Shown here: piece after piece, positions 2,227 to 27,744 of the stretch | Layout: each line of letters starts with the position of its first letter | How positions within the stretch are numbered: the stretch's first letter is position 1 | DNA from: a virus | Length of the DNA: 64,000 nucleotides | IMG/VR virus record: IMGVR_UViG_3300027911_000001 | Span: 1 to 64,000 of that record | Reading direction: 5' to 3' (one strand) | Translations under genes and position numbers: made by a program | The notes under the pieces: generated by a model | Databases searched by the model: none | The model's input: the letters and a program-made list of their open reading frames with translations, nothing else | What the model was told of the DNA's origin: nothing

Positions 2227-2493
2227 TTATCCTTTTACGGGCAAACCTCTGGGACCTTTAACGCGTGGAGATTTCATATCAATCATCGCAATTTTTCCAG
2301 TAGTAGGATCTAAGAATTTTTTTTGTCCTTTAGCGTTCACAGAACCAATAGGATCTGGAGTTTTCGCTATATGCGGGCTAGGACTTTTTGAGGGAAGTTT
2401 TTTAACTGATCCGATTGCCCCCTCGGCTTGCGCTTCGGGGTTACTGCTGTGGGGCTCCGAACGGTCCCTCCTTGGGAACCGCAGGTTGCTCAT
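2227..2493 (-). CDS. small basic Gly/Pro/Lys-rich protein, start uncertain
   Basis: Only ORF filling the 214 nt between the stop of 2441..4090 and the start of 1376..2224. The first in-frame ATG is at 2493. The track ORF runs to a TTG at 2652, in the +1 frame over the acidic tail of the upstream gene. Confidence 0.35.
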   Translation of the reverse strand: MSNLRFPRRDRSEPHSSNPEAQAEGAIGSVKKLPSKSPSPHIAKTPDPIGSVNAKGQKKFLDPTTGKIAMIDMKSPRVKGPRGLPVKG

Positions 2494-4090
2494 TTTCTTT
2501 ATCAGAATGTCCGCAATTAGGACAGCTGTCGTCGGCTGGGACTTCTTGTGGGGCTTCCTCTTGAGGAAACTCTTGTTCGGCTCCGGGCTGTTCTTCTGGA
2601 ACAGCCCCCCCTTCGATTTCATTAACTTCTTGTTCGGCTTCTCCGCCATCAATACCAGCTAGAGAGCAGAGTTCGATGAGTGCGCGTAACAAAGATATGC
2701 ATGAGGAATATAACTCTGGGGCTTGATCTTTTGCTTTATCCAAAATAGCTTTTTGAGATTTGAATCCTTCCAAAGCTTCGCCAATCATATTGATAACCTT
2801 TTCTTTTTGAATATCATCGGCATGCTGGTCTAGGCCATCATTCATGACATTTAAAAGAGAAGAGTCTTCTTCGGCTTCATCTTCGCTAAGTCCCATATCT
2901 TGCTGTTTGTCATCGTAATCTGCGGGATGACTGACGCCATCAGAATCCATGCCGTCAATCATGTCTTTGTGATTTTCGGCGTGTTGATCCAAAACTTCTT
3001 CTACCGAATCTTCGGGACCGCTTCCAATTGAATCGGCAAAATCTTTAGCATTATCTAAATGTTGATCCAGTATGCTTTCGATGTCTTCGCCATGCTCATC
3101 GCAAGTACAGCTTGGACAATGTCTATCTGCGCCCATATCTTCGGCTTCGGTTTCTTCAGCCAAATCAGAGGTAGCATCTTCGATAGGCATATCCGCTTGA
3201 GGCTCAATTTGTTCGCCATCGCCAGGAAGATATTTCAAATCACTAGGCCTGTCTTCTCTAGGTTGAGCTTCGCTTTCAGGAGCTTCACCTTCAGCTTGTC
3301 CATGGTATCCTTTGGGATCTGGTTTAGGTATCATAGGGCCTTCTTCTCCTGGATTTGCAGGTTCTTCGTTCATTACCCGATCACACTCTGGATAGTCGGC
3401 GGAAACAGCTTCAGGCAATCTAGGTTTAGCTTTAAGGTTAGGTTTTTCAATTACGGGTCTTGGCTCATCGTTAGCTTCATAGGATTCTTGTCTAGCTTCA
3501 GGCTCACTGTTTTTATACCCAGAATCATAACCATGATTGTTATCTTTTTTTGGAGGCTCAGAGAGAGTAGGTTCATTTTCTTCTGAATCAGTCCCTTCAG
3601 GAAGAACTTGATCAGAAGGCTCAATTGGATCAGTAACAGCCAGGATAGCTTTTTGTTCTGGGGAATCTCCAGACTCTTGATCTCTTTCTTCTTGAATTTT
3701 TTGAGAATGCTTTTCAGAATTGTCACTATATTGAACTACTTTGTTTTTACCGGTTTCTTTTGCTTCCAAAAGAGCTTTACCGGCTTCGCTTGGTCTAGAG
3801 CCATACCCAATAGATAGGGTAGATCCTATCATGTATTCATAGTCTTTTCTAAGTTGTTCTAAATCGTTTACGGCTTCTGCAGGAGCCTCGAAAACCCCTT
3901 CATCTCCACCGAGACTTATTTTTCTTCCACCACGAGCTTCGAAAAATTCTTGAACCATTTCATTAGCGGCTGTGATAGATTCAGAAATACGGCTAATCTC
4001 TTCAATATTGTCGTCTAATAGAGCGGCGGCGTGTCTTTTGCCGATCTCATCTCCATCAGTTGCAAAGTAAAGAACGTTTTGGTTACCCAT
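2441..4090 (-). CDS. minimal GGDEF/mCpol-like palm (nucleotide-cyclase-type) domain fused to a ~420-aa acidic low-complexity tail
   Basis: The first ~125 aa carry, in order, YFATDGDEIGK, SLGGDEGVF, TLSIGYG and AGKALLEAKETGKNKV. These parallel the GGDEF-domain blocks DxDxFKxxND, GGDEF, SxGxA and ADxALYxAKxxGRNR. The rest is D/E/P-rich with two CxxC pairs. Confidence 0.6.
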   Translation of the reverse strand: MGNQNVLYFATDGDEIGKRHAAALLDDNIEEISRISESITAANEMVQEFFEARGGRKISLGGDEGVFEAPAEAVNDLEQLRKDYEYMIGSTLSIGYGSRPSEAGKALLEAKETGKNKVVQYSDNSEKHSQKIQEERDQESGDSPEQKAILAVTDPIEPSDQVLPEGTDSEENEPTLSEPPKKDNNHGYDSGYKNSEPEARQESYEANDEPRPVIEKPNLKAKPRLPEAVSADYPECDRVMNEEPANPGEEGPMIPKPDPKGYHGQAEGEAPESEAQPREDRPSDLKYLPGDGEQIEPQADMPIEDATSDLAEETEAEDMGADRHCPSCTCDEHGEDIESILDQHLDNAKDFADSIGSGPEDSVEEVLDQHAENHKDMIDGMDSDGVSHPADYDDKQQDMGLSEDEAEEDSSLLNVMNDGLDQHADDIQKEKVINMIGEALEGFKSQKAILDKAKDQAPELYSSCISLLRALIELCSLAGIDGGEAEQEVNEIEGGAVPEEQPGAEQEFPQEEAPQEVPADDSCPNCGHSDKENEQPAVPKEGPFGAPQQ

Positions 4091-4994
4091 TTTTACTCCT
4101 TAATACTTCTAGGAGCATTTCAATATTTTCTTCAGACCAAGATTTAGGAAACGAAACCTTAATACCATCTTCAGTTTTCTTCAAATAAACCTTATTTCCC
4201 ATATCTGACCCAAAACACATACAGGCGGATATACCGGAATCATTAAAAATGGTTTGATTGCAATCAGGGCAGTTAACTGTTTCACTTTTGGTCATTTCAA
4301 TGGAGAATTCTTTTTTTGCAAGTTTCCTTTTTCTATTTTCAACGAAATCAGATAAGGGTGACTTCTTTTTAGAAACTACAATAACTACTGCTTTGGGCTC
4401 TTCCTTTTGTTCTTCTTTGATCTCTTTATGCTCTTCAGTCATTTGAGTAAGCTTTGCCATAATCATTTGCTGAACGGCATCTCTGTGCATTAACTTACCA
4501 TCTATAACTTGATTAATTAAAGAATGTAGATTTAGGCGTTCATCGATGATCTTACTGATCTGACTCTCCATGGAACTATCCATTTTGGGTCCTACAGAAG
4601 GATTTTCAAAATCATACAGTTCGAGCATTGTCATTAAAACTAAACCTAAGCCTGGGACCGATCTATGCATGAAGTCACTTATTTTTACATTATTCTGTAA
4701 AATTTGACCGCTATAGCTGTCTCTTTCGTGCTTGGTAGTACGTACAATAGTATCGTCTTTGCCAGGAATTCGAATTTCCTTGGTATCGCCAATTTGCATT
4801 GGAGAAAGTTCGCGGACTAATAATCCAAGTAGGGCTTTTGGAACTATTTGAAGACCTTGAAAAAGATCATCGGTATCTGTAATTGTTCGAGTGCCTTGCT
4901 TGTATACCTCGCTCTTAGATAAAACTTCCTCTAAAGACTTCGAAAAGTCTTCACCGAGAGTTTTATTAATAAAGAGTTCGGCGTTTTTACCCAT
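4083..4994 (-). CDS. hypothetical protein with C-terminal Cys cluster (CPDC...CMC)
   Basis: 303-aa ORF with an 8-nt overlap with the downstream gene. Lys/Glu-rich linker and a Cys cluster near the C-terminus. Confidence 0.8.
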   Translation of the reverse strand: MGKNAELFINKTLGEDFSKSLEEVLSKSEVYKQGTRTITDTDDLFQGLQIVPKALLGLLVRELSPMQIGDTKEIRIPGKDDTIVRTTKHERDSYSGQILQNNVKISDFMHRSVPGLGLVLMTMLELYDFENPSVGPKMDSSMESQISKIIDERLNLHSLINQVIDGKLMHRDAVQQMIMAKLTQMTEEHKEIKEEQKEEPKAVVIVVSKKKSPLSDFVENRKRKLAKKEFSIEMTKSETVNCPDCNQTIFNDSGISACMCFGSDMGNKVYLKKTEDGIKVSFPKSWSEENIEMLLEVLRSKNG

Positions 4995-7143: not shown

Positions 7144-8394
7144 TTATTTGTCTCCTCTATAAGCATGTCTTATTTTTTGTACATAAGGATGCTTTTCAAT
7201 ATTATGTTTTGCTTTTAAAGCTTTATTTGTTCCGGAAATTCCTTGATTCCAAGCGTATCCTAGTTTAGCAGGATCTCTGCCAAGATGATGCTCTAAACGA
7301 TCGAGATGTCTATTTACAATAGCTTGTTCCAATTTAGGATTATCTTGCATATATCTATTGAGATTATCACCCTGAAGCTGTAAAGCTTTTCTATATTGTC
7401 TTTTTAAATCAGGGTTCATCTTAATAGTTTCATGAATAGTATCTGGCATTACAGCCCAAGCACCATATGCGGTTCCATGAGAAGTTGGCTTATGTTGAGT
7501 ATTTTTACCGCCAGAACTTTCGACTTGTTTGATAGCATTAAGCATTTTATCTCTAGAATATTGTTCGGGGGGATGACCTGCGGCAGGCGCATGGGCGGGA
7601 TTTGCAGCCATAAGACTTCCGGCCATTGCTCCGGCAGTTAACATGCTTTTAAGAGTGCCCTTTTTCATATCTTCAGCCTTTCCAACTTTTTCTGGGAGTT
7701 TTTTGCCTTTTGTAGCTTCATCCCATTCGTGTACGGCGGCTTCTCCGCCTAATGCTTCCTTGCCAGCTTTCGTATGAGCCCAACGTCTTTGAGCATCTGA
7801 AGAATAAGGTTTCATTAAGGGTTCTAAAATTTCGGCTTTTTGAACTTCTTTTGGACCGTAAGTGTATAGAGTGTGAGGCCCGCGTCTTAGCTCAGGATAC
7901 GCAAATTCTATATTAGCATCCGCAGCAGTTTTATAACTATTGGATTTGATTTCATCATATAAAGCTTTAGGTATGGATATATGAGCTTTCCATTCGTATT
8001 CATCTTCAAAACCAAGTACCGAAAGTTTTTCATGTCTGGCTTTCATTTCGTCTGCGTCTGGACCGCTTAAAGTTAGAGAATAGACATCATTGCCTAATCT
8101 ATCTTTTAATACGGAAGGGGTAATTTTCATTTCTTTAGGGTTAGGGATATGAGGTTCAAAATCTTTTGCTATTTTATGAACATTATCTACGCTATCATTT
8201 TCTTTGTCAAAAAATCTTACAGTAGCATGATAAGGAATATTGTTATCTTCCCTACGGTCTTTTCCATTTATAGTGAGCGGATAGGCCAAAATAAACCCAG
8301 TCATAGCCAATGCCTTATAAGCTTGGGGGTTCTCGGCTTTTGAGAGCGGAGAATTTTCTACGAGAGTTTTTTTAAGGCTTTTATAAAGACTCAT
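7144..8394 (-). CDS. 2H-phosphoesterase-like domain + hydrophobic segment + SLT lytic transglycosylase domain (virion/ejection protein candidate)
   Basis: YHATVRF (about aa 56) and KAHISIP (about aa 139) form paired HxT/Sx motifs about 83 aa apart. Hydrophobic stretch LKSMLTAGAMAGSLMAA. C-terminal QVESSGG, AYGAWAVMPDT and GYAWNQG match the family-1 lytic transglycosylase blocks (ES, GLMQ, AYNxG). Confidence 0.65.
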   Translation of the reverse strand: MSLYKSLKKTLVENSPLSKAENPQAYKALAMTGFILAYPLTINGKDRREDNNIPYHATVRFFDKENDSVDNVHKIAKDFEPHIPNPKEMKITPSVLKDRLGNDVYSLTLSGPDADEMKARHEKLSVLGFEDEYEWKAHISIPKALYDEIKSNSYKTAADANIEFAYPELRRGPHTLYTYGPKEVQKAEILEPLMKPYSSDAQRRWAHTKAGKEALGGEAAVHEWDEATKGKKLPEKVGKAEDMKKGTLKSMLTAGAMAGSLMAANPAHAPAAGHPPEQYSRDKMLNAIKQVESSGGKNTQHKPTSHGTAYGAWAVMPDTIHETIKMNPDLKRQYRKALQLQGDNLNRYMQDNPKLEQAIVNRHLDRLEHHLGRDPAKLGYAWNQGISGTNKALKAKHNIEKHPYVQKIRHAYRGDK

Positions 8395-8397
8395 ATT

Positions 8398-9252
8398 TTA
8401 ATATTCACCAATTACATATTTCTTAGCGAATATACCTTTTATTTTGGCGATAAGCTCATTACGACTTTCTTTTAATTCTTCTATACGAAGAGCAAATCTA
8501 CGAGGCCCAAGTGTACTCGAGCTTTGTGATACGCCGTCTTGCGATAGACTTTGAGAAGTAGCAGTATAGAATTGTGCGATTTGGCTAATAAGGTTTATAG
8601 CCGCATTAGTTCCGACAAGCTGATTTACGATTACTGGCAAATGACCTTCGCGATTTGAAATACCGCTCGAATAATTTAATTGCCAATAAGCAGGTACTTG
8701 CCCTGCATTGCCTGCAGAGCCCCAAATTGCCAAGAAGGCAACGCCGGCACCTTGGTTGGTAACGGTTATCGGTGATCCAGTTACAGAGGTCGCTCCAAAA
8801 GCAGCTAACAATGGAATTACGTTGATCTGACCAATACTTGCGTTGGCCATATCCACCCACATGCTTGGAACGACAAATATGGTTTCATCGTTACTCGCCA
8901 CAATAGATAAAGATTCCAAACTAATAATCGGACTGTGCCTAGGTTTTAGGTGAATGAAGGACTTGTATAAGGACCAATCAAAAGGGAGCTTCTCTTTAAA
9001 TTCTTCTCTTGTAAGGGTAACGCCAATTTGAGCTTCGGTCTCATTCATGGCCATCATGATGCGATCTTTAAGGATATCTGGGGTAAATGTATCGCCGTTA
9101 GGAAGAGTTAAAGGAATACCTAAAAGAAATCTATTTTTGAAAAGCTCAGGCGTAAGGAAAGGCTCTACGCGGCGCAAAAGACCGGATGTTTCCTGCGCAT
9201 GGACAGGATACACACTTGTTTGAAACGTACGTGAAGCCAAAAAGTTACTCAT
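8398..9252 (-). CDS. hypothetical protein (virion module)
   Basis: 284-aa ORF in the operon. No motif recognised. Confidence 0.8.
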   Translation of the reverse strand: MSNFLASRTFQTSVYPVHAQETSGLLRRVEPFLTPELFKNRFLLGIPLTLPNGDTFTPDILKDRIMMAMNETEAQIGVTLTREEFKEKLPFDWSLYKSFIHLKPRHSPIISLESLSIVASNDETIFVVPSMWVDMANASIGQINVIPLLAAFGATSVTGSPITVTNQGAGVAFLAIWGSAGNAGQVPAYWQLNYSSGISNREGHLPVIVNQLVGTNAAINLISQIAQFYTATSQSLSQDGVSQSSSTLGPRRFALRIEELKESRNELIAKIKGIFAKKYVIGEY

Positions 9253-9308
9253 TAATTACTCCCGATACCTAATTTAAATATACCCGATGGTAAGCCAAAA
9301 GTCAATTC

Positions 9309-9752
9309 CTAGAAAAAGAATGTATTGTCTGGAAGGTTACCGTCAGAACCATCGGCGCTATATTCGACTACAAGCATTTGCTGTACAATAAAATTACTAG
9401 CCACATTACCTTCAAATAGCTGAAATTTAACAGCTCCTGTTTGCGGAGTATTGGTTTGAGGGATCTGTACGCTAAAGATACTACCGTCGCAACTGTTTTG
9501 CTGCGCTATAAGCGTTATAACCTTGCTACAGTCGATACTAGGGAAATTAACCCTCATACCAATAACTATACCTTCGGCGCATGCGCCAGGCAAATATCGC
9601 AAAGCACACGCCGGATCACAAGCGCTATCTAGATCAACTAGTTGAAAATATAAGGTAGCTTGATTTCCTGCTTGAATAATCCATTGATTCGCGTACTTAA
9701 AACTATTTACGTTTTGATAGTTAATAATAGGTCTTGCTGAAAGTCTGGCCAT
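9309..9752 (-). CDS. hypothetical protein (first gene of leftward virion operon)
   Basis: 147-aa ORF with a Cys-containing, beta-type composition. Confidence 0.75.
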   Translation of the reverse strand: MARLSARPIINYQNVNSFKYANQWIIQAGNQATLYFQLVDLDSACDPACALRYLPGACAEGIVIGMRVNFPSIDCSKVITLIAQQNSCDGSIFSVQIPQTNTPQTGAVKFQLFEGNVASNFIVQQMLVVEYSADGSDGNLPDNTFFF

Positions 9753-9846
9753 ATTTTTTGCCCCTAAAAAGTCTTGACAAAGCAGCCCGAAAAGGGTAAG
9801 CTTTTAAGTAAAGATTGGTTGTTTCGACCGATCGGAAGGTAACTAT

Positions 9847-10122
9847 ATGAAAAGTAAGAAGAAAGCTAAGTCTAAGAAATGTGGCAAGAAAACCAAGGAA
9901 AAATGCAAAAAGCCCAAATGTTGCGATGTGAAGACAAAACAAGCAGAACCTTTTTTAGAAGATCCTGCTTTTCGCGAACCTCCGATAACCATATTAGATT
10001 TTAGCGACCCTAATCTTGGTCGTCCGGCACCTCTTCCCGTTTCTGGTAGCGGAGAGGAAGTCGGCCAATTGTTTGGACCTGTTAAGGCTTTCTTTAAAAA
10101 ACTATTGGGACGCAAAAAATGA
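9847..10122 (+). CDS. Lys/Cys-rich small protein
   Basis: 91-aa ORF with GGAAGG 7 nt upstream of the ATG. Confidence 0.6.
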   Translation: MKSKKKAKSKKCGKKTKEKCKKPKCCDVKTKQAEPFLEDPAFREPPITILDFSDPNLGRPAPLPVSGSGEEVGQLFGPVKAFFKKLLGRKK

Positions 10123-10313
10123 TTTATTTGTCCATTTTTGGTCCAATGTTCTTGTCTCTCACTTTGTTTGGTTATCTTGATACAAAGTATCCTACTGATG
10201 GATGGGAAGGTTTTTTCCCCATATTCATTTTATGGCCAGTGGGATTAGTTCTTTTTATTATAATTTCGCCATATATGTTAGGAAAATATTTAGCAAATAG
10301 GAGCAAAAAATGA
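10119..10313 (+). CDS. small membrane protein
   Basis: 64 aa with two hydrophobic segments. ATGA-coupled on both sides. Confidence 0.6.
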   Translation: MIYLSIFGPMFLSLTLFGYLDTKYPTDGWEGFFPIFILWPVGLVLFIIISPYMLGKYLANRSKK

Positions 10314-10972
10314 AAAGAGTTATTGCTGTGAGTGGCTTTAAGCGTTCAGGAAAAGATACCTTGGCTGATTACCTTTTAAGTAATGACGAATCGGCTTATA
10401 GAGTTTCCTTCGCAGGTCCTTTAAAAGATGAAGTGGCGGATAAATTTAATATTCCACGCGACTGGCTGGATAATCCAGAATATAAAGAATCCCCTATTCT
10501 TTCTATGCCAGTAGACCCCCAAGATAAATTCTCATCTACTGTTATCAATTTTATGCTTCCTGAATTTAAGGTAGCCGATACGAATCAAAGAGATGCCCAG
10601 CTATATTGGACACCACGTGCGCTCGCGATCCTTGTCGGATCAACTTCTAGAGCCGCAGACCCTAATCATTGGGTAAAGCAGGCCATTAAGGAAGCGGAAG
10701 AAGCCCATTATGAAATGGGTTACGAAACTGTGGTTATTTCTGATTTACGTTATAAAAGCGAAGTAGCTTTGTTAAGAAAACAGTTTGGAGATAACTTAAT
10801 TACTATTAGAGTAAATCGTTTCGACACTTCGCCATCTCAAGATCCAAGCGAAGTAGATTTGGTGGGTTACGAACACGATTATGTTATCGACAATAAAGGC
10901 ACAAAAGAAGAGTTCTTTACTAAAATAGATTATCTACTAGCGACATTAAATAAAAAAGGCCCTCAGTCATAA
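10310..10972 (+). CDS. P-loop kinase, phage dNMP-kinase-like
   Basis: N-terminal Walker A (VSGFKRSGKDT). Size and layout resemble phage deoxynucleotide monophosphate kinases. Confidence 0.5.
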   Translation: MKRVIAVSGFKRSGKDTLADYLLSNDESAYRVSFAGPLKDEVADKFNIPRDWLDNPEYKESPILSMPVDPQDKFSSTVINFMLPEFKVADTNQRDAQLYWTPRALAILVGSTSRAADPNHWVKQAIKEAEEAHYEMGYETVVISDLRYKSEVALLRKQFGDNLITIRVNRFDTSPSQDPSEVDLVGYEHDYVIDNKGTKEEFFTKIDYLLATLNKKGPQS

Positions 10973-12741: not shown

Positions 12742-13584
12742 ATGTCGAAATACACACCAAAAGATGTTGCCCAGCTCATCGCAAATGTGGAAGAAGCATT
12801 TACTGCTCAATTGGCTAAAGCTAAAGAGTCGTCCCTTGCTAAATCTGAAGATGGCGAAAAAGACCATAAAGAAGAAAGCAAAGAAGAACATAAACCTGAA
12901 CATAAAGAAGAAGCTCCTAAGCATGAATCTAAGGAACACAGTTCCGAAGAGCCAGCTAAGGAAGACCATAAAGAAGCCGCTCCAGAACACAAGGAAGAGC
13001 AGCATTCAGAAGGTCACGATTACGATGCAGAAGATCTAGCTCACATGGAAAAAATGTATAGCTCGATGTCTGATGGCGAAAAGAAAGCTCATCACGATTG
13101 TCTTTCAAAATGTATGGGTGGCTCGGCAAGCAAGCCAGCAGAAATGTCCAAGAACGAAGACGCAAGTCAAAAAAGAGGTAACGGTGGAGAAATGTCCGCT
13201 TGTGAACCTAAAAACGTTCCTGGAGCAAAATCGCCAGCTAGCGCCGCTGATGGAGATCAAATGAACAAATCAGAAAATACTGAAGTAGAGCTTCTTAAGT
13301 CGGAACTGGCTGCTGAAAAAGCCGAAAAAGCTGCAATCAAGGATTTCTTGACTGCGCTAGCCAAAAAAACCGCCCCTCAAGGTAAGGCTATTACTTCTCT
13401 TGATGTTATCGCTAAAAGCGAAGCACCAGCTGAAGAAAAGGTTCTTTCCAAGAAAGAAATTCACGATATTCTTGTAAAAAAATCCGGGCAATCGGATCTC
13501 AAGAAATCTGATAGAGATGCAATTAATTCATATTATCTGGATGGTCAGATAAACGTTAACGCTGTTAGTCACCTGCTTAAATAA
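12742..13584 (+). CDS. scaffolding-like protein (His/Lys/Glu-rich repeats, helical C-terminus)
   Basis: Lies immediately upstream of the capsid candidate. Charged EHK/KEE-type repeats and a coiled-coil-type tail. Confidence 0.5.
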   Translation: MSKYTPKDVAQLIANVEEAFTAQLAKAKESSLAKSEDGEKDHKEESKEEHKPEHKEEAPKHESKEHSSEEPAKEDHKEAAPEHKEEQHSEGHDYDAEDLAHMEKMYSSMSDGEKKAHHDCLSKCMGGSASKPAEMSKNEDASQKRGNGGEMSACEPKNVPGAKSPASAADGDQMNKSENTEVELLKSELAAEKAEKAAIKDFLTALAKKTAPQGKAITSLDVIAKSEAPAEEKVLSKKEIHDILVKKSGQSDLKKSDRDAINSYYLDGQINVNAVSHLLK

Positions 13585-13611
13585 GGCAGCTTTTTAAAAG
13601 GAGAAATGAAA

Positions 13612-14997
13612 ATGATCGAACAACTTCAATCACTAATGAAAGCCCTTGAAGCAGGCAGTTATATGTCCGCTCCAGGGAACTTAGAACAAGGCGCAGCTCT
13701 TCAAATGGAAGATCTGTCCCCAGTTATGCAGAATGTCACTTTTGACGATTCTCATATCAAATTGCAAAAGATCCTTCCTTCAAAAGAAGTTAAATCTCAA
13801 TTGCACCAATTCAATCGCCAATTAGACTACGGTATCTTTGGTGGATCTGCTCAGTTTGAAGGCGGCGTCGGAGAAGAAGACGTGTCGAATTTCATTCGCG
13901 CAGTGGTCCCAATGTCTTATTACAGCACGATTCGTCGTGTTACTGTTGCTGCCAACATGATTGGCGCATTCGACGGCGTTAAAGCTGAAGATCGCTCTTC
14001 TGCTGATGCTGCAATGAAAATCGCTGGCGATATTGAGTTTGACTCCTTCCGTGGACAATCGAATTTCTCTAACAACGGTGTTTTCGATGGTAACCCTCTC
14101 GCTGTAGCTCAAATGCCGAACATGATCGGTGTTGACCAACAAGTTCGTCAATCCGACAGCCAAGCAAATACTCAAGATTTGATGTTTGCTGAATACGGTT
14201 CTAATCAAACTGTGGTTCTCCAAGTCGGTGGAACTCTTACTCAATCTGTTATCGAAGATTCTTCGGTTCGTTCGGCCATGAACATGGGCGCAGCTGACCG
14301 TTTGATCCTTGATCCTATCAGCTTGTCTGCATATAACAAAATTGCACATGCCAAAGAGCGTATCATGCTCGCTGGCTCTGCTCAAGAAGCGACTGGCGCT
14401 CACCTTCGTACACAATGGACTTCGTCCGCTGTTGTTTCGTTGGAAGCTTCCCGTTTCTTGTCCGGAAAAACCCAACCAGCTCGTAGCCGTGCTGGAGCCC
14501 CTGCTGCTCCTTCTATCGCTGTCGCTGACGGTGGTGCTGCTGGATCCTTGCTCTTAGCTGGAACCTACGTTTATTATGCAACGGCTTGTTCAATCATCGG
14601 TGAGTCTCTCCCTGGTGCTGCTCAAACTGCAACCGTTACCGCTGCTGGCGATAAAGTCAATGTGACTATTACCGCTGTATCGGGCGCTGCATACTACAAC
14701 GTATATCGTTCGGCTCTTGGTTCGAATGCTGCTAATGCAAAATTCATTGGAAGCATCAGACAAGGTAGCGGAAACCCAGTATTCGTTGACTTAGGCAACA
14801 AATCCCCTGGTTTCGTCACTGGATACTTGATCCAAGGCAACACCCTCGGATTTGCTCAATTGGCTCCTTATAGCAAATTAAAACTTGCTGTTTCGGACCT
14901 CTCGCTTCCAGAAGCTCATTTTAGATTCTTAAGCTTAGCTGCTTATCAACCTAGAAAGAACGTCATTCTAGACAATATCACTGGCCAATTAAGCTAA
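13612..14997 (+). CDS. major capsid protein candidate with FN3/Ig-like insertion
   Basis: About 460 aa. AAGGAG lies 8 nt before ATG 13612 (the track start at 13606 is only 2 nt from the SD). Follows the scaffold-like gene and is followed by a strong terminator. The TAVSGAAYYNVYRS segment resembles an FN3-type module. Confidence 0.6.
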   Translation: MIEQLQSLMKALEAGSYMSAPGNLEQGAALQMEDLSPVMQNVTFDDSHIKLQKILPSKEVKSQLHQFNRQLDYGIFGGSAQFEGGVGEEDVSNFIRAVVPMSYYSTIRRVTVAANMIGAFDGVKAEDRSSADAAMKIAGDIEFDSFRGQSNFSNNGVFDGNPLAVAQMPNMIGVDQQVRQSDSQANTQDLMFAEYGSNQTVVLQVGGTLTQSVIEDSSVRSAMNMGAADRLILDPISLSAYNKIAHAKERIMLAGSAQEATGAHLRTQWTSSAVVSLEASRFLSGKTQPARSRAGAPAAPSIAVADGGAAGSLLLAGTYVYYATACSIIGESLPGAAQTATVTAAGDKVNVTITAVSGAAYYNVYRSALGSNAANAKFIGSIRQGSGNPVFVDLGNKSPGFVTGYLIQGNTLGFAQLAPYSKLKLAVSDLSLPEAHFRFLSLAAYQPRKNVILDNITGQLS

Positions 14998-16258: not shown

Positions 16259-19200
16259 ATGGCCCAGCTGATCTTTACAGAAAACGCATCAGACCCTACT
16301 TCACCCTCTGCAGGACAATTAAGCTTATTCGCCAAAACAGATGACGAACTTTATGTAAAAACATCTGCCGGTGTAGTATATGCCCTTACTGGTACTTCCG
16401 CTATTACTTCATTATCTGGGGATGTCGTGGCATCTGGACCCGGAGGCGCCGTAGCGACTATTCAACCCAATGTTGTAACGAACGCAAAATTAGCACAGAT
16501 GGCCACCCATACTATTAAAGGAAATAATACCGGGAGTGCTGCAAATGCCGCCGATCTTACAGCAACTCAAGTAACCGCAATGTTAAACTTGTTCAGTTCT
16601 AGTCTTCAAGGATTAGTCCCTGCTTCTGGTGGCGGAACGACTAACTTCCTAAGGGCCGATGGAGCTTGGGCTGTAGCTGGAAGCGGTTCAGTAACGAGCG
16701 TTGCTTTATCCGATGGAAGTACCATTCCAATATATTCTATTTCTGGTAGTCCCGTCACTTCTACCGGAACATTAACTTTTACATTAAGCAATCAAAATGC
16801 AAATTTGGTATTTGCCGGTCCCGCTACTGGTAGCGCAGCTCAACCTACATTTAGATCATTAGTTGCTTCTGATATCCCTAGTCTTTCTGGAATATACCTT
16901 CCTTTGTCTGGTGGAAATCTTACGGGCAATCTTGGTTTAGCGGGGGGAAGTGTCGGTTCTCCATCTCTACACTTTGCTACCGATACTACTAGCGGTTTTT
17001 ATCGTCCAGGCGTTGATCAAATTAATATTGGAATATTGGGCGCACCAGTCGTTAATATCGGCACCAGCGGTGTAGCTATTACTGGCAATGTGTCGGCCAC
17101 TAACCTTTCTGGAACGAATACTGGCGATGTAACGCTAGCGCCCGTAGGAGCTTCTCCGAATGCTAACGCGGCTAGCTTAAGCGGTCAAGCTCTGACGCTT
17201 GAGCCTTTCAGTTCTGCTTTTCCAGGCGTAGTATCGGCCTCTGGCGGTGGTACAACTAACTTTTTAAGAGCCGACGGAACTTGGTCAGCTCCTCCTACTT
17301 CTCCTCCTGGCGGAAGCAATACTCAAGTTCAATTCAATAATTCGGGATCGTTTGGGGGAAGCCCTCTTTTTGCTTGGGATGGATCGCAAGTATTAATAGC
17401 TGGAGCAGGAGAAAACACAGGAGGAGGACTCGCCAATCTACAGTTAACCAATACCTCTTCTGAAACTGGTATAGATTTAAACAATACAGGAACAGGCGGA
17501 AGAAGCTATAATATCGTTTCTGCTAATAGCGGCTCAGCCGTTGGAGCTGGAAATTTCTCCATATTAGATGCTACTGCTAGTGTCGCACGTCTAACAATTA
17601 ACAGTTCAGGTAATGTTGGAATAGGAAATACCAATCCGCAAGCTCGTTTACATATAACAGGTGGCGGAGTTCAAATTGGCGACCCAGGAAATGACCAAAA
17701 TCTTACTTTTGGTGGGACTAACTCAGGAATATATTGGGCAGCTAGCGGCGCAAATATTTATTATAGTGTTGGAAGTTTAATTTTTAGTCCTGTCGGGGCT
17801 CCTAATGCGTTCACTCTTCAAGCTAGTACCGGAAATGGAATATTTACTGGCGCTCTTTCTGCTTCTAATTTATCTGGCACCAATACCGGTGATGTAACTT
17901 TGACTGGAGAAAACTATCTTACTATTGCTGGTCAAGTCATAACAGTTCATCCAGTTAATCTTGCGACCTCAAATGTAACAGGGATACTTCCTGGATCACA
18001 TGTGGGCGCTGGCGGGACTCCAACACAAATGCAATTCAATGATGGGGGCGTCTTAGGCGGATTAGGTCTATCTGCTGTTGACAACGCTTCTTTCTTCATG
18101 GGCCTACAACAAGCTACTCCTATAGCTCCATTGCATGTTACTGGGGCATCTGGTGTAACCGTTGCAGCTCCAGCTTCGCTCACATCCGTTCTAGTATTAG
18201 ATCCCACGGTAACCAGCCCTACAACTTATACGGTTGCACAGGTAAACTCTCCTGCTGCTCCTGTTATTACAGCGACAAATTTAAACTACATTGATAATCC
18301 TAATGCTGGTAGCGGTGTTCAAAATACAGGTAGCGGACCATACATTTGTAACGGACAAGTCATAACATACAATCTTTACACCTATTTACTCGTTGGTGGA
18401 GTGAGAGTCGCCACCGGCAATTACTATACAATGACAGTTCAAGATTTCATCAATGATGGAGTGACTCAGTTTTATGTTGATTTGTCGGGATTTGGTACTG
18501 GTGGAGCTAGCTTTGACGGTTATATACTATGGAAGCAAGACAATCAAGGCTATGGACCTTATTGGATTGATTTGCCCGGCGCTCCAACTGGCTATACCGA
18601 TAACGGATACACAAATCAAGACGCTTATATAGTTTCTCCTTATCAAGCAACAGGATTAACTTGGTCTTCTGGAATATCTCAATATCAAAGCATTGACGGC
18701 ACTAATTATACTGGGAATTATTCTACCAATCCTGCAGGCGATGATTCATCCGGTCGATACTTTTATATTAACACAACTTGGACGGTAGTCGGACTTGATA
18801 CCTATATGGCTGTAAGCGATATAGCATCTAATCACTATGATTTGGGTAATACGGGCACTTTTGACGATTACAATCAAAGCGGTATTCCGCCATATACCCC
18901 TTTTGCTAGTATTGCCTTTGCATATTTTCCTACTGGAATATCCGACGGATCAGAAGTCAGCGTTACTCCCAATGAGTCAGAGGGCGGCAGTTATAATTTT
19001 AACGGTAGCACATATCAATATAATGTTTACGAATACAACACTAATCCTGTAAACGGCATCCAATACTGTACCAGCGGTTATAGTTTCTCTACGGGCGACC
19101 CCAACGATGGAAGCACTACTGGGGCCTTTGATATTATTCTTAATGCAGGTACAGGACAAGGTCGCATTATCACAGTATCAGTCAATGGTGGTCCAATTGT

Positions 19201-21298
19201 TGGCGTCGATATGGGCGGAGCAACCACTATTACAGATTATGGTACTTGGGGTGCTGCGCCTAATACGAGCCATCTTATCAGCAGTTATGCTGGATATCAA
19301 CGCTATTTTAGCGCTTACGGATTTGTTACCAGCCCTTCTACTAAGTATAGTGCCACACACAATGATCAGTCCTTCATAGACAACAATCCCGTTGATGGAT
19401 ATGTCATAAATCATTTTGTTTCTGGGTTTGGCTCAGCTACCAATGTAAAGATAGTGGGCACCACTACATTAGGAGGTACGCCTTTTACTCATGTTATTCC
19501 AAACGCATCCGCAGATCCAAGCTATATATTACAGGGTGCGGCTTCTACCGATGGCAACATCACTGTTACCCCTGCAACTCTAGGATTTCTTGCGACGGGA
19601 CAAACTATAACCTATCAGGCTTGGAGCACAGAGCTAAGTGGTGGTGTTACCATCTATTCGGGCACTTTCGCATCTCACTCCCAAGTATTTCCTAACGATG
19701 GACTATATTATGTAGTTAACTTAACTATTGGCGCTGTTGGTGGCGCCACATATAAACTTGAGAAGGTCGGCACTGGGTATATGCTGAGTGCTACTACTTC
19801 CTTTCAAGACAATAATAGCGTTCCTTGGAATGCATCTAGCACTGTTACTCCAACATCGGGATATATTACTGGGGCCATTATTGAAAGAGGATTTGTCGGG
19901 ACGCCGGGAGAACCTGGATGCGCTCAGTTTAAAAGTACTTCCGTTTATTCTCCATATAATCAATTCTTTTCTAACGGCTCAGAAATTGCTAGGTATGGAA
20001 TGGAGGCCGGAGGAAATTTCTTTATTGCTCCCAATGGACAATATGGGCTTGAAATCGGTACGCAGGGTAATCCTCATACAATTATAGCGGGCGCCAATGG
20101 CCAATCTACCATATTCAACAACTTAGCTCAAACGAATAGCCCGTTCATTATTAAAGGAGCCAATAATGAAATAGTGCATACGGATCCTTTCTACAACACA
20201 TTCTTTTTGGGTAATCATGGCGCTCTTTCTTCTAATCCAAACGCCCAGCTTTCCATCATACCTTGGAATAGCAATTTAGCTATAAACGCAATTCAGCCTG
20301 GTGCGGCTTCTCCGCTTAACGTAGCAATACAGGTGACCGACTCCACTAACGGACAAGCTTTTGGCGTCAGTTGGGGCGGTCGGGCTTGGTTTGCGTTTGG
20401 TGGAAATAAAACAACCTCTAACCTATCTATCGGACAGGGACAAAATAGTCTAGATCAAATTCATTTAGACAACTCCTCAACTCCACCTCCCTTAGCTAGC
20501 AATGATTCTCCTGGGGGGATTAATAGATATGACAATAATGGATATGTGCCAAATGCTAACGCTATCGGCACTCAGTTATTATTTACTGACAAAAACAGTC
20601 ACACATACGCTATTCTAACCAATGTAGATCCGGCTACGGGTGGCTCTGGAAATAACTCTTGCTTCTGGCGTACAGGTACTAATGGTATGCCCGTCCCTGA
20701 CACTGGATTTTTTACAAATAGCACCCATACTCTTTATATTTTTTCAGGTGCGCAAGTTGAGTTTAAGCAAGGCGCTTCGATTGATAATTCTCAGTTCTTA
20801 GGAATAGGGAATGCACTCACAATAGGGGCGAGCAGCGGCCCTAGCAGCAATCCTGGGTTCAGCGGACACATGACTTTTGGTATTAGCAATGCAAGCACCC
20901 AAAGAGTAGGGTTCTTTGGTACAGTTCCAATCGCTCAGCAAGCGAACACGGTAGCAATAGATACGAACTTAATTAACCAAGGGCTGCTTGCAGCTGGTAC
21001 TATTGCTAAATTTGACACGGATGTTAAGATTGGGGTTGTCGGAAAAGGTCTTTATATTAAAGAAGGTACAAACGCAACAATGGGAGTTGCGACTTTGGTG
21101 GCCGGAACTGTCGTTGTTAGCACTACCAAAGTTACCGCTAGTTCTCGTATATTTTTGACTGCACAATCGTTAGGAACAATCACTGTTCCGGCTGCGCTTG
21201 CAGTATCAGCAAGAACAGCCGGAACATCTTTCACAATTTTATCAAGTAATCTTACCGATACTTCGGTAGTTGCTTGGCAAATTATAGAACCAGCATAA
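16259..21298 (+). CDS. tail fibre / large receptor-binding structural protein
   Basis: 1679 aa, rich in Gly/Ser/Thr/Asn. ASGGGTTNFLRADG(A/T)W occurs twice (nt ~16621-16668 and ~17236-17283). NLSGTNTGDVTL occurs twice (~17101 and ~17866). Confidence 0.75.
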   Translation: MAQLIFTENASDPTSPSAGQLSLFAKTDDELYVKTSAGVVYALTGTSAITSLSGDVVASGPGGAVATIQPNVVTNAKLAQMATHTIKGNNTGSAANAADLTATQVTAMLNLFSSSLQGLVPASGGGTTNFLRADGAWAVAGSGSVTSVALSDGSTIPIYSISGSPVTSTGTLTFTLSNQNANLVFAGPATGSAAQPTFRSLVASDIPSLSGIYLPLSGGNLTGNLGLAGGSVGSPSLHFATDTTSGFYRPGVDQINIGILGAPVVNIGTSGVAITGNVSATNLSGTNTGDVTLAPVGASPNANAASLSGQALTLEPFSSAFPGVVSASGGGTTNFLRADGTWSAPPTSPPGGSNTQVQFNNSGSFGGSPLFAWDGSQVLIAGAGENTGGGLANLQLTNTSSETGIDLNNTGTGGRSYNIVSANSGSAVGAGNFSILDATASVARLTINSSGNVGIGNTNPQARLHITGGGVQIGDPGNDQNLTFGGTNSGIYWAASGANIYYSVGSLIFSPVGAPNAFTLQASTGNGIFTGALSASNLSGTNTGDVTLTGENYLTIAGQVITVHPVNLATSNVTGILPGSHVGAGGTPTQMQFNDGGVLGGLGLSAVDNASFFMGLQQATPIAPLHVTGASGVTVAAPASLTSVLVLDPTVTSPTTYTVAQVNSPAAPVITATNLNYIDNPNAGSGVQNTGSGPYICNGQVITYNLYTYLLVGGVRVATGNYYTMTVQDFINDGVTQFYVDLSGFGTGGASFDGYILWKQDNQGYGPYWIDLPGAPTGYTDNGYTNQDAYIVSPYQATGLTWSSGISQYQSIDGTNYTGNYSTNPAGDDSSGRYFYINTTWTVVGLDTYMAVSDIASNHYDLGNTGTFDDYNQSGIPPYTPFASIAFAYFPTGISDGSEVSVTPNESEGGSYNFNGSTYQYNVYEYNTNPVNGIQYCTSGYSFSTGDPNDGSTTGAFDIILNAGTGQGRIITVSVNGGPIVGVDMGGATTITDYGTWGAAPNTSHLISSYAGYQRYFSAYGFVTSPSTKYSATHNDQSFIDNNPVDGYVINHFVSGFGSATNVKIVGTTTLGGTPFTHVIPNASADPSYILQGAASTDGNITVTPATLGFLATGQTITYQAWSTELSGGVTIYSGTFASHSQVFPNDGLYYVVNLTIGAVGGATYKLEKVGTGYMLSATTSFQDNNSVPWNASSTVTPTSGYITGAIIERGFVGTPGEPGCAQFKSTSVYSPYNQFFSNGSEIARYGMEAGGNFFIAPNGQYGLEIGTQGNPHTIIAGANGQSTIFNNLAQTNSPFIIKGANNEIVHTDPFYNTFFLGNHGALSSNPNAQLSIIPWNSNLAINAIQPGAASPLNVAIQVTDSTNGQAFGVSWGGRAWFAFGGNKTTSNLSIGQGQNSLDQIHLDNSSTPPPLASNDSPGGINRYDNNGYVPNANAIGTQLLFTDKNSHTYAILTNVDPATGGSGNNSCFWRTGTNGMPVPDTGFFTNSTHTLYIFSGAQVEFKQGASIDNSQFLGIGNALTIGASSGPSSNPGFSGHMTFGISNASTQRVGFFGTVPIAQQANTVAIDTNLINQGLLAAGTIAKFDTDVKIGVVGKGLYIKEGTNATMGVATLVAGTVVVSTTKVTASSRIFLTAQSLGTITVPAALAVSARTAGTSFTILSSNLTDTSVVAWQIIEPA

Positions 21299-23518: not shown

Positions 23519-23712
23519 TCTCTGTGATCTCCTCTAGGGTCGCATTGGCCTTCTGTTCCAAAATAATCCATGGAGTGAAGTTCGTCTAAATGTTCGTTTA
23601 GCCATTCGGCTTCAAGTTTAAGATTTTCTTTACAGCTTTCTTCTTCTAAAAAATCAGCAAAAGCTCTTAAATGCTTCACTACTGTTTTTGATGTAGTCTT
23701 TTTTGTTTTCAT
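23515..23712 (-). CDS. small hypothetical protein
   Basis: Start moved to ATG 23712 (MKTKKTT...), ATGA-coupled to the upstream mini-ORF. Confidence 0.6.
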   Translation of the reverse strand: MKTKKTTSKTVVKHLRAFADFLEEESCKENLKLEAEWLNEHLDELHSMDYFGTEGQCDPRGDHRE

Positions 23713-23858
23713 TTTTTTACTTCCTTCTTCAATTCTGGGTATACATAAAGGCCGCAATTATAGCAAGCCCATCCTTGAGCGAACCTAACAAAATTTGTTT
23801 GCCCGCACTTGTTGCATTTATTGCAACTACTGTTACTTTTGACTAATTTAATGGTCAT
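23709..23858 (-). CDS. zinc-ribbon mini-protein (49 aa)
   Basis: Manual translation gives MTIKLVKSNSSCNKCNKCGQ...CYNCG, with CxxC pairs. Overlaps neighbours by 1 nt and 4 nt. Below the track size cut-off. Confidence 0.5.
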   Translation of the reverse strand: MTIKLVKSNSSCNKCNKCGQTNFVRFAQGWACYNCGLYVYPELKKEVKK

Positions 23859-24136
23859 TAACTAGCCACTCTAGTAGAAATGTCTTTTTGAAAAGTATAC
23901 ATAAAAGTCCCAAAGATACCAAAGACAGCTGCGTTTAGACCATCGATATCCATGTCTTCTACGGCTTTTTCGATTTCCGAAAGATCAATCCCTAACTTCT
24001 GAGTCATATAAACAACAAGTTCTTTTAGAGTACCATGTCTTGGATTATTGCCATCGCATTCAATAATCCATTGGTCTAATTCTGGAAAGGGTCTGTAGAT
24101 CACTGTTGAGGAAAGTTTGCTAAATTGGTAGTTCAT
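23858..24136 (-). CDS. hypothetical protein
   Basis: 92-aa ORF. Confidence 0.65.
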   Translation of the reverse strand: MNYQFSKLSSTVIYRPFPELDQWIIECDGNNPRHGTLKELVVYMTQKLGIDLSEIEKAVEDMDIDGLNAAVFGIFGTFMYTFQKDISTRVAS

Positions 24137-24145
24137 GTTTTCTCC

Positions 24146-24523
24146 TTAAAAGCTTTTATTAAAAGCCTCATCTAAGATCTTATCAAAGTCTTCAGAATTT
24201 GCAACATCTTTTTTTGAGGGATTGAATTTCTTTTTAACGAACTTAGGATCGATTTTATCAAAATTAAGCTTATATCGATTTGAATAGCCGGTATTGCCCT
24301 TCTTATAACTGATTAAGCCCTTGTCTTTTAAGGATTTAATACAAGTATTTACGGTTTTATCAGAAAATCCAGTCGTTTCGGCAATGTTCTTAATCGATGG
24401 ATAGATATCTTTACGGTTTTGAAATGACATAAGATAAACTAAAATTGTAAATTCGCTGCCATTGAGCTTATGATTATAGACCCCCAGGGGAAGTCTTAAA
24501 AAATTGCCATGTTTCTGTTCCAT
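24146..24523 (-). CDS. winged-helix/HTH DNA-binding protein
   Basis: The SIKNIAETTGFSDKTVNTCIKSLKDKGLI segment has a helix-turn-helix pattern. First gene after the divergent control region. Confidence 0.5.
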   Translation of the reverse strand: MEQKHGNFLRLPLGVYNHKLNGSEFTILVYLMSFQNRKDIYPSIKNIAETTGFSDKTVNTCIKSLKDKGLISYKKGNTGYSNRYKLNFDKIDPKFVKKKFNPSKKDVANSEDFDKILDEAFNKSF

Positions 24524-24543
24524 ATCAAATCTCCTACAGCTAC

Positions 24544-24570
24544 GTTATATCATATCTGAGGAAATGTCAA
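24544..24570 (-). promoter_or_regulatory. sigma70-type promoter for leftward operon
   Basis: On the minus strand: TTGACA-15 nt-TATAAC with a TGa extended -10. AGGAG SD downstream. Confidence 0.4.
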
Positions 24571-24666
24571 GAAAAATCCTTTTAATATTAAACTTATGTA
24601 ATTTTTACGTACCACAAAGACTCACTCACAAACAATAAGACTCTAATAAAATTTTCAATTTTTGAA

Positions 24667-24694
24667 AACGGGAACGGGAACGGGAACGGGAACG
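24667..24694. repeat. (AACGGG) x4.7 tandem hexamer
   Basis: Perfect tandem copies in the 407-nt divergent intergenic region. Confidence 0.9.
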
Positions 24695-24797
24695 CAATCC
24701 GTACAGCACTACCTATAGAATAGTCTATGTCTTAAGCCCCGTCTTTGTCTATGGCTCGGCAACAGCATATAAAACGTAATAAAATCAGGGGGTGAAA

Positions 24798-24842
24798 TTT
24801 GGGTTTTGGTCTGATTTTGGCTTATAGGCCGTTATCTTTTGG
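24798..24842. repeat. TTT(T)GG iteron-like cluster (4 copies)
   Basis: TTTGGG at 24798, and TTTTGG at 24804, 24815 and 24837. Confidence 0.6.
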
Positions 24843-24913
24843 TTTATGCGACCTGGGGGATCATTTAATCGTTTAAACCTTGCCACGAGGCTGGGAACCA
24901 TCTTCTAGCAAAT

Positions 24914-24922
24914 TGTGATATA
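24914..24922 (+). promoter_or_regulatory. TGTGATATA box exactly 8 nt before an SD-less ATG (extended -10 / leaderless candidate)
   Basis: Same box and spacing occur at 25140, 42588 and 42735. Confidence 0.45.
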
Positions 24923-24930
24923 TACAGATC

Positions 24931-25137
24931 ATGGATATAGTTTGGCTGTACAAACATTTGAAAATGAGAATCAAGATGTTCTCAGAGCGCAAAACCTATA
25001 AGACTCAAAGGGAAAGAGATTGGGATAGGGCTTATGCTTCTGCGTTCGAGGACGTATTACGTTGGATTAGGCGTGAAGCCGTAGAGGAAAGACTTAAACG
25101 TAGGGCTGCCCGCAAGTATATGAACAAACATTGGTAA
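24931..25137 (+). CDS. small basic hypothetical protein
   Basis: 68-aa ORF with no SD. Preceded by the TGTGATATA box. Confidence 0.55.
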   Translation: MDIVWLYKHLKMRIKMFSERKTYKTQRERDWDRAYASAFEDVLRWIRREAVEERLKRRAARKYMNKHW

Positions 25138-25139
25138 GT

Positions 25140-25148
25140 TATGATATA
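25140..25148 (+). promoter_or_regulatory. TATGATATA box 8 nt before an SD-less ATG
   Basis: See 24914. Confidence 0.45.
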
Positions 25149-25156
25149 TACTGGTA

Positions 25157-25633: not shown

Positions 25634-25638
25634 GCTTT

Positions 25639-26363: not shown

Positions 26364-26366
26364 GGT

Positions 26367-26708: not shown

Positions 26709-26796
26709 ATTTCTCCTTAAGAAATTACTGTATTAACGGCCCAAATAAGAGCTATAGCTGCCAATAAGTATAGAGCAAGTCCTTCTATTAATTTGG

Positions 26797-27009: not shown

Positions 27010-27034
27010 ATCTCCCTAAATAAAAGTGAAATGC

Positions 27035-27199: not shown

Positions 27200-27200
27200 A

Positions 27201-27734: not shown

Positions 27735-27744
27735 ATCGTCTCCT

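Follow-up and report, generated by a model that had tools for sequence, protein, structure and literature searches.

Introduction

The closest described counterparts of the gene analyzed here are the phage polyvalent proteins surveyed by Iyer et al. (J Bacteriol 199:e00245-17, 2017; PMC5512222). In that survey, the packaging and injection of these proteins are argued from late-gene context and breaching of the cell wall is proposed for them, phage-type polyvalent proteins are the only ones listed with 2H phosphoesterase or lysozyme/transglycosylase modules, and the polyvalent 2H domains are proposed, with equal weight, to degrade nucleotide signals of host defense or to act as RNases. We analyzed a 64,000-nucleotide stretch of viral DNA (positions 1 to 64,000 of IMG/VR record IMGVR_UViG_3300027911_000001; hereafter, the window) and focused on an open reading frame (ORF) at 7144..8394. 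A preliminary description, made from the sequence alone, had marked an ORF at these positions without giving its strand and had read the product as a 2H-phosphoesterase-like domain fused to a membrane segment and an SLT lytic transglycosylase. The ORF is indeed present, on the minus strand, with an ATG start and a length of 416 amino acids (aa), and its product consists of a leader, a 2H phosphoesterase domain, a small helical module, a Gly/Ala-rich linker, and an SLT lytic transglycosylase domain. We consider it, with a probability of roughly 0.55, to be a small polyvalent-type bifunctional effector that is made late and delivered by the virion of an Mx1-like contractile-tailed phage.

Like polyvalent proteins, the 2H-SLT protein joins unrelated effector enzymes in one polypeptide and is encoded among late virion genes. 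It also shares modules with the protein that fills the same gene slot in Myxococcus phage Mx1 and that bears the diagnostic ART-PolyVal domain. Unlike polyvalent proteins, it has only two enzymes and 416 aa. The K-[A/S]-E motifs in its linkers suggest that it may be processed by a prohead protease and not by a built-in peptidase. The preliminary description had presented the coupling of a 2H domain to a wall-cutting domain as undescribed. This stands narrowly, in that the parts of the 2017 survey used here join 2H to MuF or portal and do not confirm a direct 2H-SLT pair; the claim was nevertheless overstated, because the same parts already hold the concept and both modules (PMC5512222). The new elements are a large and highly divergent 2H clade that lacks annotation, its compact two-enzyme form, the Mx1-like modular cargo slot, and the candidate protease-site linkers.

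Other known systems resemble the protein in part. Acb1 of phage T4 (gp57B) is likewise a phage 2H protein with two HxT/S motifs and is a structural neighbor of the domain studied here (7t27/7t26 and several entries in BFVD, a collection of predicted viral structures). Unlike the 2H-SLT protein, Acb1 is free, is ~150 aa long, and has no wall-cutting fusion; a literature search for packaged Acb1-like enzymes found nothing. Rotavirus VP3 is carried inside the virion. The 2',5'-phosphodiesterases formed by its C-terminal domain and by coronavirus ns2 have the 2H fold too and were among the top structural matches (6o3v, 4ye2, and 4rpt), but they belong to eukaryotic RNA viruses, have capping-enzyme partner domains, and show no sequence similarity to the protein. 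VP3 is multidomain, and through its 2H module it degrades an oligonucleotide that serves as an immune signal, as cited in the survey (PMC5512222, ref. 109).

On the wall-cutting side, T7 gp16, other internal or ejected virion proteins with an SLT domain, and phiKZ gp144 also have the family 1 transglycosylase fold with a catalytic Glu-Ser pair in a virion-associated protein. Virion transglycosylases of this type are used to cross peptidoglycan (PMC5512222). Whereas gp16 is a 1,318-aa podovirus core protein with an N-terminal SLT domain, the SLT domain here is C-terminal, is encoded by a myovirus-type genome, and has been lost in some relatives. Finally, T4 IPI-III and Alt are small effectors that enter the prohead during assembly, where the prohead protease trims them after Glu, and that are later injected along with the DNA. 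They serve as a mechanistic analogy only: there is no homology, the cleavage rule is L/I-x-E and not K-[A/S]-E, and the targeting sequence differs. Alt is also treated in the 2017 survey (PMC5512222).

A 2H phosphoesterase domain outside the named families

The 2H domain spans aa 22 to 182 (7849..8331, minus strand). It carries two catalytic tetrapeptides, H56-A-T58-V (8218..8229, minus strand) and H138-I-S140-I (7972..7983, minus strand), both noticed in the preliminary description; they lie at aa 56 to 59 and 138 to 141, with a spacing of 82 aa. A bare pair of H-x-[TS]-x motifs is not significant by itself, as at least two occurred in 13.5% of shuffles of aa 1 to 190, and the SLT domain carries two further instances (HGTA306 and HETI321). 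Both tetrapeptides of the 2H domain are also flanked by hydrophobic residues (Y-HATV-R and A-HISI-P), and two such flanked tetrapeptides are expected by chance with a P value of 0.004. The motif observation is solid because it is conserved across homologs: 76 to 85 homologs of the same architecture (35 to 63% identity) all keep H56 and H138, and conservation is ~97% at T/S58 and ~99% at S/T140.

AlphaFold2, run with the family alignment, predicted an alpha+beta domain with a predicted local distance difference test (pLDDT) score of 83 for the domain alone and ~96 within the full-length model. In this model, each catalytic His opens a beta strand (residues 56 to 62 for H56 and 138 to 140 for H138). 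When the model was compared with the PDB by Foldseek, the top 19 matches were all 2H enzymes, with a probability of 1.0 and TM-scores of 0.40 to 0.51. The closest was a phosphodiesterase of Burkholderia phage BCSR5 (9q2g), for which no paper was found in the literature. The other neighbors were the "2'-5' RNA ligases" of P. horikoshii and B. subtilis, the rotavirus VP3 phosphodiesterase, Usb1, Acb1, AKAP18, and cyclic phosphodiesterases (CPDases). In BFVD, nearly all of the top 50 matches were 2H proteins, among them phage proteins of the 2'-5' RNA-ligase superfamily and Acb1. The earlier reading of aa 1 to 190 as a 2H domain is thus upheld, as structural comparison led to the 2H fold and not to an unrelated one and the His motifs are conserved among homologs.

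Sequence profiles gave no significant link to this superfamily. No 2H profile in Pfam matched the query, and across 81 homologs there were only stray subthreshold matches, two to PF13563 (best E value, 0.0029), two to Acb1 (E value, 0.06), and one to LigT (E value, 0.19). PDB sequences, searched with the query alone and again with a profile of its family, yielded nothing relevant, neither 2H nor SLT, and a PHROGs search with the protein gave two insignificant matches only. A profile of the N-terminal domain run against a set of 5.8 billion proteins added 19 short variants and no tie to annotated 2H families. Against GenBank phages, neither tblastn with the protein nor megablast with 20 kb of the sequence found a match.

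The preliminary description had named Acb1 among the possible kin. We rejected membership in this family (PF23474), as the Pfam matches reached E values of 0.06 or worse in 2 of the 81 homologs and hhalign against T4 gp57B gave a probability of 1.6% (E value, 0.032). The hhalign match is in register at the second HxT motif but is not significant, and an Acb1-like identity is not borne out: Acb1 is one of many 2H structural neighbors. Because the fold and the His residues are conserved and the profiles are not significant, we place the domain in the 2H superfamily but outside Acb1 and the other named families. As judged from the predicted structure, aa 22 to 182 form a genuine 2H phosphoesterase domain, which is predicted to be catalytically intact, with its two HxT/S motifs on facing strands.

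The SLT domain and the connecting segments

The C-terminal third of the protein is an SLT-type (family 1) lytic transglycosylase domain (aa 275 to 416; 7147..7572, minus strand), in agreement with the preliminary description. Pfam PF01464 matched the query at 21.4 bits against a cutoff of 21.3 bits, i.e., marginally, and 37 of the 81 homologs at E values of up to 1 (best E value, 6.2e-07). The model of the domain has a pLDDT of ~97, and Foldseek assigned it an Slt70-type fold, with matches to Slt70 (1qte and 1sly), Cj0843, P. aeruginosa Slt, MltD, and phiKZ gp144. The ES, GLMQ-like, and AYNxG-like blocks that had been pointed out earlier are present as Q-V-E292-S293-S-G-G, G311-A-W-A-V-M-P317, and Y-A-W382-N-Q-G385, respectively; the family consensus of the second block is GLMP. 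The catalytic pair Glu292-Ser293 (7516..7521, minus strand) is invariant in 76 sequences, G311, W382, and G385 are invariant as well, and P317 shows conservation of 90% or more. From these residues and the fold, the domain is predicted to be a catalytically intact Slt70-type enzyme with Glu292 in the active site.

The segment that had been reported as a membrane segment is a Gly/Ala-rich linker at aa 246 to 270 (GTLKSMLTAGAMAGSLMAANPAHAP; 7585..7659, minus strand). It is conserved (motif type, GALKNxLTAGAMAGALA), charge-poor, and weakly hydrophobic. Its 19-aa Kyte-Doolittle mean is 0.8 to 1.0, compared with a usual threshold of ~1.6, its summed Hessa scale is +6.3 kcal/mol, and AlphaFold models it as a coil without any helix (pLDDT, 35 to 41). 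A transmembrane anchor at this position was rejected on these hydropathy and model checks, and the designation as a membrane segment is not borne out. The segment may instead be a flexible or membrane-active linker.

At the other end of the protein, the N-terminal leader (aa 1 to 21, MSLYKSLKKTLVENSPLSKAE; 8332..8394, minus strand) is modeled as a low-confidence helix, with a pLDDT of <50 at aa 14 to 18, and ends in a K-A-E motif whose Glu, E21, is at least 90% conserved. The leader is a possible targeting sequence or propeptide. Between the second and third K-A-E motifs lies the small helical module (aa 189 to 241; 7672..7830, minus strand), which AlphaFold models with helices at aa 200 to 228 (pLDDT, ~88) and which keeps 62 to 77% identity in distant variants, the NUDIX type included. 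This module (SSDAQRRWAHTKAGKEALGGEAAVHEWDEATKGKKLP...) has no counterpart in most of the ~370-aa homologs and is confined to a subset of the family. Pfam scans of aa 189 to 275, of the inserts of longer variants, and of the neighboring small ORFs found no match.

K-[A/S]-E motifs coincide with domain borders

The three K-A-E motifs of the protein coincide with the three low-pLDDT linkers of the model. The first (aa 19 to 21; 8332-8340, minus strand) closes the leader. The second (aa 186 to 188; 7831..7839, minus strand) lies in the linker past the 2H domain, where the pLDDT is <50 at aa 183 to 192, and the third (aa 239 to 241; 7672..7680, minus strand) precedes the Gly/Ala-rich segment, where the pLDDT is <50 at aa 236 to 270; both are candidate protease sites. 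The 231 relatives that were collected contain 378 K-[A/S]-E motifs, compared with 118 ± 10 in shuffled sequences, and six control tripeptides were found at or under expectation. The positions are uneven as well. The 197 proteins that have a complete 2H domain contain 330 motifs, of which only 9 are within the 2H core; 82 occupy one fixed position at its N border, and 28 lie at position +5 past its C border.

The motif is also concentrated in one part of the window, with 13 of the 16 instances in its 58 ORFs falling within the head/neck module. The ORF in the scaffold position (12742-13584, plus strand) contains five (1.3 expected) and the 2H-SLT protein three (0.5 expected); sites were also recorded in the ORF at 4083-4994 (minus strand). 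In Mx1, the polyvalent protein carries the motif at aa 131, 309, 608, and 1253, in the spaces that separate or adjoin the GNAT, ART, and SLT-homologous segments mapped with Pfam, and there are four motifs in the scaffold-position ORF and two in the portal. In both phages, the scaffold-position ORF holds more of these motifs than expected. The Mx1 sites were recorded at 24404-28843 and 18798-19670.

Prohead proteases cleave at L/I-x-E in T4 and at S/A/G-x-E in phiKZ. By analogy, K-[A/S]-E may be a candidate prohead protease cleavage motif of the Mx1-like lineage. If it is a true cleavage site, the 416-aa protein would be a prohead resident that is cut into three pieces.

A late head/neck block of an Mx1-related phage

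The window is phage DNA, encoding a major head protein, a deoxynucleoside monophosphate (dNMP) kinase, collagen-like tail fibers, and a 1,679-aa fiber or spike protein. The major capsid protein (13606-14997, plus strand) matches phrog_752 (major head protein; E value, 1.9e-38) and is 52% identical to its counterpart in Mx1, a contractile-tailed phage with a genome of 169.6 kb. Mx1 is the nearest cultured relative and was reached through the capsid protein only. A protein identical to the 2H-SLT protein (P0001) is encoded on a 164.8-kb metagenome contig. As judged from these sequence relationships, the source is an uncultured ~165-kb Mx1-related phage.

The genes run in the order capsid, metallophosphatase, dNMP kinase, 147-aa ORF, 284-aa ORF, 2H-SLT gene, five small ORFs, and mCpol, followed by 88-aa and 282-aa ORFs, a terminator-like protein, sheath, and tube. 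This order is kept in four contigs in which the identity of the slot protein falls to as low as 42%, and local tblastn recovered the same order in Mx1. The 284-aa upstream neighbor (8398..9252, minus strand) is conserved, matches phrog_772 (tail fiber protein; E value, 1.5e-14), and shares 30% identity with the product of Mx1 23551-24396. The position of the 2H-SLT gene, between the capsid and tail sheath genes, assigns it on gene order to a late structural head/neck block.

Only 3 nucleotides (nt) separate the start of the 2H-SLT ORF from the upstream stop codon, and there is a 23-nt overlap with the gene that follows. The ORF belongs to a run of at least 12 codirectional, tightly packed minus-strand ORFs that extends from 9752 down to 90, with gaps of 0 to 56 nt or overlaps. 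Between 9752 and 90, there are no minus-strand terminator-like sites, and promoter-like sites do not exceed their frequency in shuffled sequences. The preliminary description had placed the gene in one operon with a cyclase-like protein at 2441..4090. The latter gene indeed shares the strand and lies five genes farther downstream in the same tightly packed block, with no terminator-like site in between. It encodes a 549-aa mCpol (minimal CRISPR polymerase) protein (minus strand) with an N-terminal palm domain (PF18182; E value, 1.5e-18), intact DGD and GGDE motifs, and a very acidic tail of ~420 aa that is probably disordered. The mCpol slot is filled in three contigs (L002, L003, and L005) and in an ENA contig, with a weak match in Mx1.

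Several further features were noted in and around the window. The 1,679-aa protein (16259-21298, plus strand) ends in a K1-lyase_C intramolecular chaperone domain (E value, 4.8e-24) and probably acts as a tail spike or fiber that degrades capsule. At 59951-61925 (plus strand), a 327-aa phrog_4400 protein with weak nucleotidyltransferase similarity adjoins a 326-aa AAA/clamp-loader-like ATPase. In the source contig L003, genes for a macro domain protein, NAPRTase, and a phosphoribosyltransferase adjoin the structural block at 18286-21001, just past the point that corresponds to window position 1; this set looks like NAD salvage/ADP-ribose processing of the kind linked to counterdefense. In T4, at 73591-75954, acb1 (57B) lies beside the genes for dNMP kinase (1), the tail terminator (3), and head completion and beside ipI. 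This neighborhood resembles window positions 7144-10972, where the dNMP kinase gene is at 10310-10972, through either coincidence or old synteny.

Relatives exchange enzymes in the same slot

We counted architectures in 139 sampled homologs. A 2H domain with a full SLT domain is present in 111 of them, and 17 have, in the same slot, a 2H domain with the C-terminal half of SLT only, without the catalytic Glu. Six have 2H without SLT, and five have SLT without 2H, three of these with NUDIX and two of the three also with VTC. Insert-bearing members exist, for example, 2H+GNAT+SLT, and there is a VTC+NUDIX+SLT variant. One homolog that has lost the catalytic half of SLT (P0127) shares 54% identity over the 2H part and lies among the same neighboring genes. 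The half-SLT remnant of the 17 homologs (P0121-P0136; L005 6001-6723) is helical, has the motif YLEDNP...H..R..HFG, and may serve a noncatalytic role such as assembly. In terms of domain content, the sampled set shows wall cutting to be the accessory and the 2H module to be the constant.

When 1.84 billion representative sequences were searched exhaustively with phmmer, the 2H module proved to have 104 relatives there. Many are embedded in proteins of 800 to 1,900 aa, and those that were scanned contain GNAT, VTC, NUDIX, or kinase-like domains. In Mx1 (L001), the slot at 24404-28843 encodes a 1,479-aa "NUDIX hydrolase" with GNAT, ART-PolyVal, and NUDIX domains. Its aa 1078 to 1228 are homologous to the SLT domain (31% identity; E value, 2e-9), and a PI3/4-kinase-like protein is encoded next after it (24404-30710 for both genes). 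The slot protein is not mentioned in the Mx1 genome announcement. GNAT, VTC (triphosphate tunnel) with NUDIX, ART-PolyVal, and PI3/4-kinase-like domains thus appear as swapped cargo in the same slot and on the same SLT module (P0038, P0040, P0050, P0056, P0143, P0147, P0156, and P0194). Several inserts of 100 to 260 aa in the slot relatives had no match in Pfam.

A scan of 185,579 GTDB species genomes gave only two contigs (L007 and L008), both from metagenome-assembled genomes and both probably misbinned phage contigs. Their bins are Ca. Taylorbacteria and a bog "Deltaproteobacteria," the latter loosely consistent with a myxobacterial or related host.

Discussion

In the reading that we prefer, the 2H-SLT protein would be made late and loaded into the prohead. 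Cleavage at the K-[A/S]-E linkers would then yield a free 2H enzyme (aa 22 to 188), a small helical piece, and a fragment consisting of the Gly/Ala-rich linker and the SLT domain (aa 242 to 416). At the next infection, the pieces would be expelled together with the DNA; the SLT part would nick peptidoglycan locally, and the 2H part would be present in the new host ahead of phage gene expression. It would hydrolyze 2',3'-cyclic, 2'-5', or 3'-5' phosphodiester bonds, the likeliest targets being host cyclic-oligonucleotide or oligoadenylate immune signals and the alternative being RNA ends. Of this scheme, packaging in the virion, delivery ahead of expression, and the substrate are what we infer.

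Several observations count against this scheme. The domain has no profile link to any named 2H family and its TM-scores are modest, and therefore the substrate is not readable from homology; the structural neighbors are split evenly between signal-degrading enzymes (Acb1 and VP3/ns2) and RNA-end enzymes (LigT, Usb1, and CPDase). The family has more than 200 members, none of which is annotated, the database copies being called "hypothetical protein." The usual packaging hallmarks of polyvalent proteins, i.e., MuF, portal, and a zincin/metallopeptidase module, are not attached here. Contractile-tailed phages normally carry their wall-cutting enzyme at the tail tip and not in the head. Since the catalytic half of SLT is missing from 17 of the 139 homologs and the whole of SLT from another 6, wall cutting is dispensable and the coupling of 2H to SLT is not obligatory. 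As for processing, the K-[A/S]-E counts are not independent events because the sequences are related, and the N terminus of the capsid protein has KALE only, with no exact K-[AS]-E nearby.

In an alternative reading, the delivered 2H domain acts on RNA, either as a Usb1-like 3' exoribonuclease or RNase on host transcripts or by healing 2',3'-cyclic phosphate ends to counter host anticodon or ribotoxic nucleases. We regard this as less likely than the preferred reading, but it deserves to be kept in view. Usb1, the LigT/YjcG-type "2'-5' RNA ligases," and the CPDases rank equal to Acb1 and the viral 2-5A phosphodiesterases in structure, and the RNase reading is given equal weight in the 2017 survey (PMC5512222). 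One short-variant copy is also labeled "RNA binding exosome subunit" in the database, a name of little weight. On the repair side, no RNA ligase or polynucleotide kinase was found beside the gene in the five contexts examined, and polyvalent-type 2H domains are reported never to accompany RNA ligases (PMC5512222), which argues against repair but not against an RNase role.

The proximity of mCpol raises the possibility that the 2H domain is paired with the phage's own mCpol, whether for trimming or turnover of a phage-made nucleotide or for a combination in which the host signal is erased and a decoy supplied. We consider such a pairing unlikely. The mCpol DGD/GGDE motifs are intact, and the gene is conserved together with the 2H-SLT gene in the block of every contig examined, weakly so in Mx1, but this linkage may merely reflect a frozen structural gene order. 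Because Mx1 keeps an mCpol-like gene with a slot protein that lacks 2H, the two are not obligate partners. Host mCpol makes decoy 2',3'-c-di-AMP or cA3, the loss of which triggers Panoptes (PMC12657218), and with host mCpol proteins being Panoptes signal generators, the phage mCpol could be a countermeasure. In a more elaborate form, which we hold to be improbable as a whole, the particle would bring an "erase and replace" kit against host nucleotide immunity: the 2H enzyme, released at the K-[A/S]-E sites, would destroy the cyclic-oligonucleotide alarm signals of the host within seconds of DNA entry, and the mCpol decoy would keep Panoptes-type guards silent. Panoptes systems fire on the disappearance of the signal, and such a kit would amount to the "anti-anti-anti-defence" anticipated by the authors who described them (PMC12657218).

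It is quite unlikely that the protein is instead an unpackaged late intracellular or lysis protein, i.e., an endolysin-like enzyme that is exported or held by a signal-arrest-release (SAR)-like Gly/Ala segment and whose 2H domain is active in the producing cell. Lysis genes are likewise expressed late, aa 246 to 270 resemble SAR sequences in composition, and, under the positive-inside rule, the lysine-rich residues ahead of this segment would leave SLT on the outer side of the membrane. The segment is internal, however, following 245 residues, is not predicted to be helical, and fails the hydrophobicity tests, and the gene lies among head/neck genes and not beside holin-like genes. The GNAT, ART, NUDIX, and kinase modules carried on the same SLT domain in relatives also suit injected effectors rather than an endolysin. 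Finally, the notion that the 2H-like domain is a catalytically dead scaffold with relic motifs has very little to recommend it: no hidden Markov model profile of a known 2H family is significant, but both His and both Thr/Ser residues are invariant or nearly so at 35 to 60% identity and are retained in stand-alone and embedded copies, and such retention argues for purifying selection on the active site.

To our knowledge, the characterized messenger-destroying nucleases of phages (Acb1, Apyc1, and AcrIII-1) are all made after infection has started, and the host signal therefore has a head start. If our preferred reading of a virion-delivered effector is true, a phosphodiesterase brought in ready-made alongside the DNA would remove this head start. 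We know of no 2H module for which such predelivered action has been shown biochemically; it has been a genomic prediction since 2017. The 2H-SLT family provides a compact test case, with more than 200 members, two well-folded domains, and natural variants that miss either domain, and the cultured phage Mx1 offers the same gene slot for work on packaging and cleavage. Current Pfam and PHROG models do not pick up the clade, and routine annotation of antidefense genes therefore misses it. Beyond this one protein, a slot with interchangeable enzymes is a readable catalogue of the cargo that is useful to this phage lineage.

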